The translations under genes and the position numbers were made by a program. Below are positions 7,049 to 10,475 of a stretch of DNA of 10,475 bases, in pieces (positions within the stretch are counted from its first letter, which is position 1; every line of letters starts with the position of its first letter). Below the pieces are notes generated by a model. It saw only the letters and a list, made by a program, of their open reading frames with translations. It made no database searches and was not told where the DNA came from. The stretch comes from a virus (Duplodnaviria; Heunggongvirae; Uroviricota; Caudoviricetes): IMG/VR virus record IMGVR_UViG_2657245139_000006; one strand, written 5' to 3'.

Positions 7049-8314
7049 TTATTTTTTTATTAAATCAAGAGTTAACCATGGAGGGAGCACTGTAAATGAG
7101 ACGGCTTCTCCATGTTTTGCTTTATTTATTAATTCTGCTCCTTGAGACCAGTTCATGTCAGGAAGAGGGGTTATAAAAAAGTTTAATTTTATCATTGCAA
7201 TAAGGATGACTGAAACATAGATTTTAAAGAATATTTTTAAGGTTTTATTCTTTATGCATTGAAACAAACAAACGCATATTAATGAAAAAATTGCAATATG
7301 AATATTTACAAAATACCTTGACCCGTTTCCGGTTGCAAGTGTTGGCAGTTGAGGAACAGAATCTGCCAGTTGAGGTTTTGCCATAGAAAATGCGACAATA
7401 AGTATTGGAAGGGTGGCAAACACTTTCATTTGCCAATTTCCTTTAATATAAATGAAAACACATAATGTAATTACTAAAGTTGATAGTGTGTACGATAAAA
7501 GGTGATTATCCCATCCAGCATTAGCGATATTCCAAGGGACAAATGAAAAAAGAAATACATTAGATGATATTATAGATGACATAACATCAAAACTGAATCC
7601 TAATGGAGCATGTGATCTTGTTCCATTAAATGTAAGAATTATTGATGTTGCCTGTATCAGCCCACACAAGATCATTGCCAAATATGGCAGTCGAGTATAA
7701 AATAAGTATAAACCTCTTATGCTTATTACTCCTTTTGATAAGTGTAAATATTTAAAAACAGATGATGCAATTATGAATATAATAAATGGACCGCTCAATC
7801 CAGATAATACTATAAAAAATAAATCATGTGCTTTCCATAATTTTGACTTGGATTCTTCAGATATTATTATCATTGCAACATACAATGATAAATACCAGTG
7901 AGCATTTGTTATATTGGCTTGGACTTCATCAAGCCCGGGCATGCAAATTAAATATACAGAGATGAAGATTTTTGATGTGGTGCTTAGGAATTTAAATCTA
8001 TCGGTAAATAAGAACCATATAATTATAGCTCTAATTATTATTCCAAAAAAGTTTGATAATAATGGTGCGTAAATTGGATTAATAAATGTCGTCGCACCAA
8101 CAATGAGTGTTGATACTGTTTGAAAATAACCATTTCTTGGGGTTATGAGTGAACTGAAAAAACCTTGTTCGTATGCATCTTTATACCAAAAAACTGCATC
8201 CTCAGCCCAAAACTGGGCATTTGTCAAAATGTCAATGCGCCTAAGCCAAATCAAAGTAAATGCAAGTATAAAAATTGATATCTTGTGCCAATTGCGCATT
8301 ATGAATATCTTCAT
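7049..8314 (-). CDS. gtrC: serotype-specific O-antigen glucosyltransferase, GtrC-type polytopic membrane protein
   Basis: 421-aa highly hydrophobic protein with many predicted TM segments (IFILAFTLIWL, LIVGATTFINPIYAPLL, IIRAIIIWFLF, FIIFIIASSVF, and others). Very AT-rich (roughly 30% GC by eye). Lies immediately downstream of gtrA-gtrB on the same strand, the canonical position of the variable type-specific transferase in gtrABC clusters. Confidence 0.7.
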   Translation of the reverse strand: MKIFIMRNWHKISIFILAFTLIWLRRIDILTNAQFWAEDAVFWYKDAYEQGFFSSLITPRNGYFQTVSTLIVGATTFINPIYAPLLSNFFGIIIRAIIIWFLFTDRFKFLSTTSKIFISVYLICMPGLDEVQANITNAHWYLSLYVAMIIISEESKSKLWKAHDLFFIVLSGLSGPFIIFIIASSVFKYLHLSKGVISIRGLYLFYTRLPYLAMILCGLIQATSIILTFNGTRSHAPLGFSFDVMSSIISSNVFLFSFVPWNIANAGWDNHLLSYTLSTLVITLCVFIYIKGNWQMKVFATLPILIVAFSMAKPQLADSVPQLPTLATGNGSRYFVNIHIAIFSLICVCLFQCIKNKTLKIFFKIYVSVILIAMIKLNFFITPLPDMNWSQGAELINKAKHGEAVSFTVLPPWLTLDLIKK

Positions 8315-8326
8315 AAGATCATCCTG

Positions 8327-9244
8327 TTATTTTCTGCTTTTAATTAAGTACCGTGGTCTTGATTTTGTTTCTAAATAAATTCTACCTATATATTCACCGA
8401 GAACACCAATCCCGATCAGTTGCACTCCACCCAGGAAAAGTATTGATACAAGCATGGAGGGATACCCGCGTACTGGGTTACCAAAGACAATGGTGTCTAT
8501 AATCATCCATGCACCATATAAAAATGAAATGCTTGCAACAAACAAGCCTATATAAGTCCATACGCGAAGAGGAAAGGTTGAAAAACTTGTGATACCTTCC
8601 AGTGCCAGATTCCATAATTTCCAGCCATTAAATTTTGAGATGCCAGCAACACGCTCTGTGCGTACATATTCAACGACATCTGTCTGACCACCAACCCAGC
8701 TCAGTATGCCTTTCATGAAAAGATTGCGCTCAGGCAATAGTTTAATGTTCTCCACAACCTCACGAGACATGAGTCGAAAATCTCCGACATTTTCCTCTAT
8801 TTTTGGGGTGCTTATTTTGTTGTGTAATTTATAGAACCACTCAGCTGTCTTACGTTTCAGCCGTCCATCAGTTGAGCGGTCTGAACGTTTAGCAAGCACC
8901 ATGTCAGCACCTGCCTGCCACTTTTCAATAAGATGAGGAATAACCTCAATCGGGTCTTGCAGGTCAACATCAATTGGAATCACGGCATCGCCGGTTGTAT
9001 GGTCTAACCCTGCAAACAATGCTGGTTCTTTACCAAAGTTGCGTGTAAATGACAGCGGAACAACTAGCGGATCAGAAACAGCCAGAGCGTTAATGATTGA
9101 CTCCGTAGCGTCTTTGCTTCCGTCATTTATGAAAACAATTTCTACTTCATATGGCTTCAACTCTTCGAATTCACGTACCGTTTTATAAAAAATTGGTATC
9201 GCTTCTTCTTCATTGAAGACAGGAACGACAAGAGATATCTTCAT
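8327..9244 (-). CDS. gtrB: bactoprenol glucosyltransferase GtrB (GT2 family)
   Basis: N-terminal GT2 signature ([20 protein letters not shown]...[11 protein letters not shown]...[10 protein letters not shown]) and two C-terminal TM helices ([44 protein letters not shown]), typical of GtrB/ArnC-like bactoprenol-linked sugar transferases. Start codon overlaps the gtrA stop (ATGA, 9241-9244). Confidence 0.9.
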
Positions 9245-9603
9245 TTCGCATCCCTAAAGACAATGAACTTTGAATAGACGAAACCGCACACCAAGCTGAT
9301 GGCGGAGAAGGTAACAAGAGTGACAATTGGAGGAAGTGAACATCTATCAGCAACCCATCCAACAGTAGCACTCAGTGTTCCCATGAACCCGACATATAAC
9401 ATGTAGCGCATCGTTGTAGTTGATGCTTTGAATGTGAATTTTGCATTCGCAAAGAAGCTAAAACTCACAGCCACAACGAAACCTGCGAAGTTTGCCATAG
9501 CCTGATTGGTATGCGCGGCATAGATACATACACCAAAAACCACCCAGTGTATAAGTGTGTTCAGCACGCCTATAGATGTGTACTTTGCAAATAGCTTTAA
9601 CAT
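9241..9603 (-). CDS. gtrA: GtrA bactoprenol-linked glucose translocase (flippase)
   Basis: 120-aa small membrane protein with four hydrophobic segments ([31 protein letters not shown]...[20 protein letters not shown]...[17 protein letters not shown]...[23 protein letters not shown]), the characteristic GtrA family size and layout; first gene of the gtrA-gtrB-gtrC operon. Confidence 0.9.
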
Positions 9604-9619
9604 TTCTTCTATCAGCTAA

Positions 9620-9770
9620 TAATCAAAGGCATGAAGTCTATCATCCAAGTCTCAATCGATCGATACTTGCGGTAGTTGATGAGAAAAACTCTGGCACACA
9701 AATCTTTGCACTGGATTGCAAGGCTTTGTGCTCTTCTGTGAATGTGTGGCTATATGTTTGAAGATCGTTG
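9620..9770. promoter_or_regulatory. gtr operon upstream regulatory region with two Dam (GATC) sites
   Basis: Non-coding region upstream of gtrA. GATC at 9658-9661 sits inside a perfect 10-bp palindrome ATCGATCGAT (9655-9664); a second GATC is at 9763-9766. A regulatory role is inferred by analogy with Dam/OxyR-controlled gtr promoters, not demonstrated. Confidence 0.3.
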
Positions 9771-9892
9771 TGCCGTATTTGTGACATATATATGGCAACA
9801 TCATTCATCAACTTTCTGTTTGTGCCATCAACTATATCTTAGTGAATGCGGTTAATGCTTGCTAAAACAGATAGTTATGATTGGTGCTACAG

Positions 9893-9938
9893 ATTCGTAA
9901 TGCGAAGGTCGTAGGTTCGACTCCTATTATCGGCACCA
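9893..9938 (+). other. attP core: 3'-terminal 46 nt of tRNA-Thr (anticodon loop to CCA end), not a complete tRNA gene
   Basis: ATTCGTAATGCGAAGGTCGTAGGTTCGACTCCTATTATCGGCACCA matches the anticodon loop (CGT anticodon), variable loop, T-arm (GGTTCGACTCC) and acceptor 3' strand with CCA of enterobacterial tRNA-Thr (thrW), the known P22-family attachment target. The upstream sequence does not form the D-arm or 5' acceptor strand. It ends 14 bp from the integrase stop codon. Confidence 0.8.
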
Positions 9939-9952
9939 TTTAAATCAATAAG

Positions 9953-10475
9953 TTACACATCATTAGTACCTTCCTTATTTCTTGACTGGGACAAATTTGG
10001 GACCGATGGGTTCAGAATCAAGTCTATTTGCCGTGCGTGTTCGGTAAGGTGATTAGGTGCGAGGTGAGCATATCGACGAACCATTTCGATAGACTCCCAG
10101 CCTCCCATTTCCTGTAACACTGATAACGGGACTCCGGCTTGAACCAGCCAACTTGCCCAGGTGTGTCTCAAGTCGTGAAATCTGAAATCATCAATACCAG
10201 CCCGTCTCAGCGCCGCTTTCCAGGCTGTGTTTGCGTCATACCGCATCTTCCTTACTGTTGGCGCTTTCGTTCCGTCTGGTTTGGTACAGCTTTCCTTGTA
10301 CACAAATACCCAACGGTGATGATTTCCGATTTGTTTTTTCAATACGCGACATGCAGTATCATTCAGCGCAACGCCAATTGCGCGGTTTGATTTACTCTCT
10401 TTGAGGTGTACTGGCAATAGCGGACACTACCATTTGTTCTTTTTTAAGCAGCCATCTGATGATATTTTTCCCTGA
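9953..10475 (-). CDS. int: tyrosine integrase (P22 Int-like), C-terminal catalytic domain; 5' part runs off the window and the frame is broken
   Basis: Catalytic-domain motifs [18 protein letters not shown] (H-x-x-R) and [13 protein letters not shown] (catalytic Tyr); stop TAA at 9953-9955. The open frame has no ATG: it begins at a TTG (10415-10417) with an in-frame TAG three codons upstream (10427-10429), while a different frame is open from the window edge 10475 to a stop at 10392-10394. Confidence 0.8.

Follow-up and report, generated by a model that had tools for sequence, protein, structure and literature searches.

The open reading frame at positions 7049-8314 (minus strand) of the stretch of DNA analysed (10,475 nucleotides, hereafter the window) is almost certainly gtrX, which encodes the type-specific glucosyltransferase of SfX, a P22-like phage that converts the serotype of Shigella flexneri; the prophage that carries it lies, in all likelihood, in an S. 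flexneri chromosome at the proA/thrW-yaiC locus. No finding speaks against this identification. This gene is already known and long characterised and represents no new serotype specificity. The presence of gtrX, of IS600 and of flanking genes from the yaiC side points to S. flexneri as the probable host, an assignment made from sequence content.

A tblastn search of the phage collection showed that the GtrX protein of the window is 100% identical, across all 421 residues, to the translation of L05001.1, deposited as "Bacteriophage X glucosyl transferase gene, complete cds" (organism Shigella phage SfX; protein AAA71895.1). At the DNA level, blastn aligned window positions 6593-8320 with positions 1729-2 of L05001.1 at 100.000% identity over 1728 nt, with 0 mismatches and 0 gaps. 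This match runs from gtrX across a 66-bp spacer into the adjacent tailspike gene, of which it takes in the final 456 nt. The SfX gene occupies the same place, after gtrA and gtrB and beside the att core, and the two copies differ in annotation alone. The preliminary description had presented the third gene of the cassette as a candidate new specificity, to be withdrawn if the gene proved a near match, from end to end, to a type-specific Gtr already characterised; the identity with SfX gtrX settles the matter against it. It had also stated that the specificity could not be read from the sequence, whereas identity to gtrX gives it directly as group antigen 7;8 (PMC3728103).

Serotypes X, Xv, 1d, 2b, 3a and 5b owe their group 7;8 determinant to gtrX, and in them the glucose sits on one rhamnose, RhaIII in the numbering used by the same authors (PMC3728103). 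Phage SfX converts serotype Y to X and, like Sf6, is a P22-like, short-tailed, headful-packaging phage (PMC3851460); the functional analysis of the SfX cluster is that of Guan, Bastin and Verma (1999), as cited in PMC3851460. When supplied on a plasmid, gtrX modifies the serotype Y scaffold, as checked by typing and 1H-NMR (PMC9243986), and the expression test proposed in the preliminary description has therefore already been published for this gene, in a serotype Y background. Defective gtr loci occur naturally, for example through a 1-nt deletion in gtrX of Yv isolates (PMC3728103). Unlike those copies, the gtrX of the window is intact and the same as the reference.

In the assembly collection, 1795 blocks have this exact GtrX protein in their index. 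The eight places listed for it lie on NCBI contigs of 1.4-4.7 Mb, most of them of approximately 4.5-4.7 Mb, and all eight have the same arrangement, with gtrA-gtrB-gtrX beside a tailspike gene that encodes a head-binding domain. The whole window was found to be 100% identical to chromosome CP020339.1 (locus L008), apart from a run of 163 N at positions 767-929, within a gene for a gp20-like ejection protein (697-2190). Locus L008, otherwise identical, has 97 nt in place of this run, and so the length of the N run is not preserved.

The gtrX reading frame is intact, opens with an ATG and encodes 421 amino acids; an AGGA sequence is found 7 nt upstream from this first ATG. The CDS annotated in L05001.1 begins at the second ATG (position 8299 of the window) and is 416 amino acids long. 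GtrX homologues with 60-70% identity are 421 amino acids long and start in the same alignment column as the first ATG. This agreement in start and length, together with the AGGA sequence, favours the 421-residue product.

The GC content of gtrX is 31.8%, compared with 41.5% for gtrB, 43.3% for gtrA and 44.6% for the whole window. In a 300-nt profile, values of 0.30-0.33 extended across approximately 7050-8400 and were higher on either side; a second dip, at 600-1050, is only apparent, since it is caused by the N run. At least seven hydrophobic segments (Kyte-Doolittle 19-residue mean of 1.6 or more) identify GtrX as a polytopic membrane protein, and its structure model is mostly helical. The preliminary description was accurate on both counts, having reported an AT-rich third gene compositionally distinct from gtrA and gtrB, and a polytopic membrane protein of 421 amino acids. 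A promoter scan returned 10 sites, with 11.9 expected by chance, and says nothing on gtr expression. An Rfam scan of the window at the gathering threshold gave no match.

On the minus strand the genes are ordered gtrA, gtrB, gtrX, which places gtrX third, directly downstream of gtrA/gtrB, in the cassette beside the att core. The gtrB gene (8327-9244, minus strand) encodes a bactoprenol (undecaprenyl-phosphate) glucosyltransferase of 305 amino acids, belonging to GT2 (PF00535, E 1e-30). The gtrA gene (9241-9603, minus strand) encodes a small membrane protein of 120 amino acids (PF04138, E 3e-13), described as an undecaprenyl-phosphate-glucose (Und-P-glucose) flippase. Both genes are approximately 94% identical in nucleotide sequence to their counterparts in SfI, SfII and SfV, where the gtrA region is annotated as gtrA, and the conserved look attributed to these two neighbours was thereby upheld. 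The same level of identity to SfI, SfII and SfV holds for the whole gtrB-gtrA-att-int stretch.

Similarity to other Shigella gtr cassettes begins at approximately window position 8355-8363, or at 8327 in the case of SfIV. The boundary thus falls within the last ten or so codons of gtrB or at its stop codon, in keeping with the earlier reading of the third gene as the variable, type-specific member of a gtrA-gtrB-gtr(type) cassette. At its other end, gtrX is separated from the tailspike gene by a spacer of 66 bp (6983-7048), 100% identical at every compared locus. It contains a terminator-like, GC-rich hairpin of 11 pairs, eight of them G-C (6991-7018), which is likely to be the shared terminator of the two convergent genes. 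Since similarity ends at gtrB and the hairpin spacer lies on the other side, gtrX forms a discrete low-GC cassette between conserved modules. This layout is the known pattern for gtr(type) genes.

No family was assigned to the 421-residue GtrX by scans against Pfam (E <= 0.01) and NCBIfam. Comparison with PF14264 (Glucos_trans_II), the profile matched by the neighbouring gtr(type) gene of comparison loci L003 and L004, gave no match, and the same was true of PF01757 (Acyl_transf_3). A sequence search of the PDB gave a chance match only (E 2.4). A match was obtained with phrog_19534, annotated "glucosyltransferase" (E 5e-49).

The high-confidence structure model of GtrX (pLDDT 90) is nearly all helical and has a GT-C fold, and the best 16 structural matches were all GT-C glycosyltransferases. 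Sequence identity to the GT-C enzymes ALG12, Pmt1/2, ArnT, AglB/PglB/STT3 and AftA is only 6-11%, and with its 421 amino acids GtrX is far smaller than they are. It also differs from them in its short C-terminal soluble part, with two strands at residues 404-419, and in its acceptor, which according to the literature is O-antigen rhamnose.

An FWAED motif was found in GtrX in which W36, E38 and D39 are invariant in 35 homologues with identity down to 23%. Residues E38 and D39 come after the first hydrophobic segment (residues 12-30); for Gtr proteins generally, a periplasmic side has been proposed for such a loop (PMC3259042). As far as the structure model and alignment indicate, the motif would fit periplasmic transfer of glucose from undecaprenyl-phosphate-glucose.

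According to the published Gtr model, GtrB, a GT2 enzyme at the cytoplasmic face, would transfer glucose from UDP-glucose to form undecaprenyl-phosphate-glucose, which GtrA would carry across the inner membrane. The polytopic GtrX, with its GT-C fold, would then transfer the glucose in the periplasm to one rhamnose of the growing O-antigen repeat. This glucosylation would produce group antigen 7;8 and convert serotype Y to X, an antigenic outcome taken from the literature. The GT-C fold and the conserved acidic motif, both found in this analysis, lend support to the scheme. From the adjacent GtrB and GtrA and the published model we infer that the donor is a polyprenyl-phosphate-sugar; catalysis by GtrX is presumed to take place in the periplasm, and the gtr cassette to be expressed in the source strain.

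GtrV of phage SfV was the only other Shigella Gtr(type) protein with detectable similarity to GtrX (35.4% identity over 97% of the length). The comparison with characterised Gtr proteins proposed in the preliminary description thus returned this value for GtrV and 100% for SfX GtrX. The two cassettes follow the same logic, and a chimeric GtrV with loop 2 taken from GtrX proved functional (PMC3259042). However, GtrV produces the type V antigen and not group 7;8, and SfV is a long-tailed phage of group A1, in contrast to the short-tailed, P22-like SfX (PMC3851460). The SfI, SfII and SfIV genomes present in the collection gave no tblastn match to GtrX at E <= 1e-5. With GtrI, GtrII, GtrIV and GtrIc, GtrX shares the role of variable third gene after gtrA/gtrB and the same att (PMC3851460), but no sequence similarity was detected, and the experimentally determined topology of GtrIV and GtrIc is different (PMC3259042).

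A pattern scan of one genome per species identified 197 relatives of GtrX with 24-39% identity; none exceeded 39%, so that no close homologue was found among the species representatives. The relatives occur in Enterobacterales, Halomonadaceae, Xanthomonadales, Cyanobacteria, Acidobacteriota, Patescibacteria and other groups. Within 4 kb of the relative, a GtrB-like gene was present in 25 of the 79 loci fetched and a GtrA-like gene in 9 of the 79; most of the fetched loci have no GtrB or GtrA homologue within that distance. In the first 25 loci listed, it is in Enterobacterales or Halomonadaceae that GtrB matches are strongest (50-88% identity) and that nearly all GtrA matches lie. One relative comes from a 2-kb contig assigned, perhaps by mistake, to a Methanosarcina bin.

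Three other explanations for the gene were considered. That it encodes a new type-specific Gtr with an undescribed specificity could be argued from the compositional break, from the lack of a Pfam or NCBIfam family for GtrX and from the restriction of its similarity among Shigella Gtr proteins to 35% identity with GtrV, with no tblastn match in SfI, SfII or SfIV. Full-length identity to the SfX reference gene in both protein and DNA, and the occurrence of the exact protein in 1795 blocks of the assembly collection, leave this explanation with practically no probability. It is just as hard to credit that GtrX is no glycosyltransferase but acts on the O-antigen as some other membrane enzyme (Wzy-type polymerase, ligase or acyltransferase, for example). 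The protein has no domain match, and an acetyltransferase gene takes the third position in some P22-like Salmonella phages, the gtrC of BTP1 being so annotated. However, the best 16 structural matches are GT-C glycosyltransferases without exception, the phrog_19534 match is to a glucosyltransferase, Acyl_transf_3 was not matched, and published genetics link gtrX to glucosylation (PMC3728103, PMC9243986).

A third explanation accepts the gene as gtrX but takes it to be silent or ineffective here, as the relic of a decaying prophage, so that the strain would type as if it had no gtrX. Signs of decay do lie beside the cassette, in the form of a frameshifted tailspike gene and an integrase remnant cut by IS600, and Yv isolates are known to carry gtr loci that are cryptic and defective (PMC3728103). 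Against this, gtrA, gtrB and gtrX are full-length open reading frames with 99.8-100% DNA identity to chromosomes whose tailspike genes are intact, and between the start of gtrA and the att core the window does not differ at all from loci L003 and L004 (100% identity). We regard a silent gtrX as very improbable, and the reading of the gene as the known and intact SfX gtrX is preferred.

The useful outcome is a negative one, namely that the window is not worth pursuing as a source of a new serotype-conversion specificity. The gtrX gene is a standard molecular serotyping marker in S. flexneri and forms part of engineered O-antigen vaccine strains (PMC10132075, PMC9243986). Because neither Pfam nor NCBIfam has a model for the GtrX/GtrV family, domain annotation returns a blank for a well-studied enzyme, which can be mistaken for novelty; this may be why the protein seemed unclassifiable.

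The tailspike gene of the SfX type (5266-6982, plus strand) is convergent with gtrX, the two being 66 bp apart. Its product combines a head-binding domain of the P22 type (PF09008, E 3e-63) with a receptor-binding domain resembling those of Sf101 and Sf11. The receptor-binding part is unrelated to that of P22 or Sf6, the similarity to Sf6 stopping at position 5611, and this confirms the earlier remark that the neighbouring tailspike is not P22-like in this part. Full-length comparison with the tail protein of S. flexneri phage Sf101 gave 77% identity; for the Sf11 tail protein the value was 72%, over the receptor-binding part. By virtue of these identities the tailspike type is also a known one.

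The preliminary description had placed gtrX back to back with this tailspike gene. A convergent tailspike gene is indeed present, but it is not an intact single open reading frame: one extra G, giving G8 at 6393-6400 where the 570-amino-acid alleles of L003 and L004 have G7, splits it into open reading frames 5221-6420 and 6380-6982. A one-off sequencing or assembly error was considered as the cause and rejected, as the 169-amino-acid C-terminal fragment is indexed in 60 blocks, most with longest contigs of 5-50 kb. On this sequence evidence, G8 looks like an allele that recurs or that belongs to a lineage.

Two alleles of the tailspike receptor-binding part were found linked to one and the same GtrX protein, the genes for which share at least 99.8% DNA identity. 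Type A is present in the window, in L003 and L004 and in the SfX reference, and type B in L007, L009 and the Escherichia coli locus L002. The two types showed approximately 80% DNA and 82% protein identity over the receptor-binding domain (regions compared: window, 5621-6982; L003, L004, L007 and L009, 11333-12693; L002, 7574-8934). In Sf101, a related tailspike (73-83% amino acid identity in the receptor-binding part) stands back to back with an O-acyltransferase gene, and there is no gtr cassette. Given the two alleles, the acyltransferase pairing in Sf101 and the frameshift, the pairing of tailspike and gtrX is neither unique nor intact here, and the idea of a matched lock-and-key module finds no support as a specific pairing. 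The two alleles and the G8 frameshift might reflect SfX host-range variants for differently modified S. flexneri O-antigens, or domestication of the prophage, with the tailspike lost and gtrABX kept under selection; a reversible homopolymer switch is also conceivable. We consider this interpretation speculative and rather unlikely.

In the window and in the loci identical to it, the neighbouring genes belong to the P22-like gp7, injection translocase, gp16 and Arc/Mnt families, and the ejection-protein genes are 92-96% identical to those of Sf6, HK620-like and other P22-like phages. This backbone agrees with SfX, itself short-tailed and P22-like (PMC3851460).

Between the Arc/Mnt gene and the tailspike gene, the window carries an HNH endonuclease gene with an AP2-like domain (4669-5208, minus strand). 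At the same site other SfX prophages have either an HNH gene with 37% protein identity (L003, L007, L010) or none (L004, L005, L006, L009). To judge by these sequences, the variation looks like mobile homing-endonuclease traffic.

Beyond gtrA, at positions 9893-9938, lies the 46-bp att core, which matches the 3' end of the tRNA-Thr gene thrW; an ARAGORN scan found no complete tRNA in the window. The core is common to SfI, SfII, SfV and SfX and is an exact match to the 'attP core' of SfI (JX509734). It is followed by an integrase remnant (9953-10417, minus strand) comprising the C-terminal 154 amino acids only and matching only profile positions 57-171 of PF00589. The integrase is cut at 10401/10402 by the end of an IS600 element (10402-10475; many sequences annotated as IS3-like element IS600 match it at 97.5-98.8% identity). 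Up to position 10401, the remnant is approximately 96-98% identical in nucleotide sequence to E. coli integrase genes.

In L008, the sequence beyond IS600 contains more transposase genes, followed by a chromosomal GGDEF gene and its neighbours. Because of the IS600-cut integrase and these chromosomal genes, the window is regarded as the chromosomal end of a prophage and not as free phage DNA. The position of an integrase beside gtrA could also suggest that the window is in phage (attP) order, which the same two features make unlikely.

The remnant is approximately 94% identical to the integrases of SfI, SfII and SfV, to which the SfX integrase is reported to show little identity (PMC3851460). 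It is therefore probably not the SfX integrase, and its sequence suggests that an older prophage, once integrated at this site, left it behind.

Among 5426 complete E. coli genomes, one carried gtrX, with 98.9% identity. This genome, of the baboon stool isolate PapM-32-1 (NZ_CP049204.1; locus L002), has the gene at 9001-10266, in a P22-like prophage located beside ybhB-bioA and not at the proA-yaiC locus. DNA identity between this locus and the window was highest for gtrX, lower for gtrB (96.2%) and gtrA (91.5%), and lowest, at 80%, for the receptor-binding part of the tailspike.
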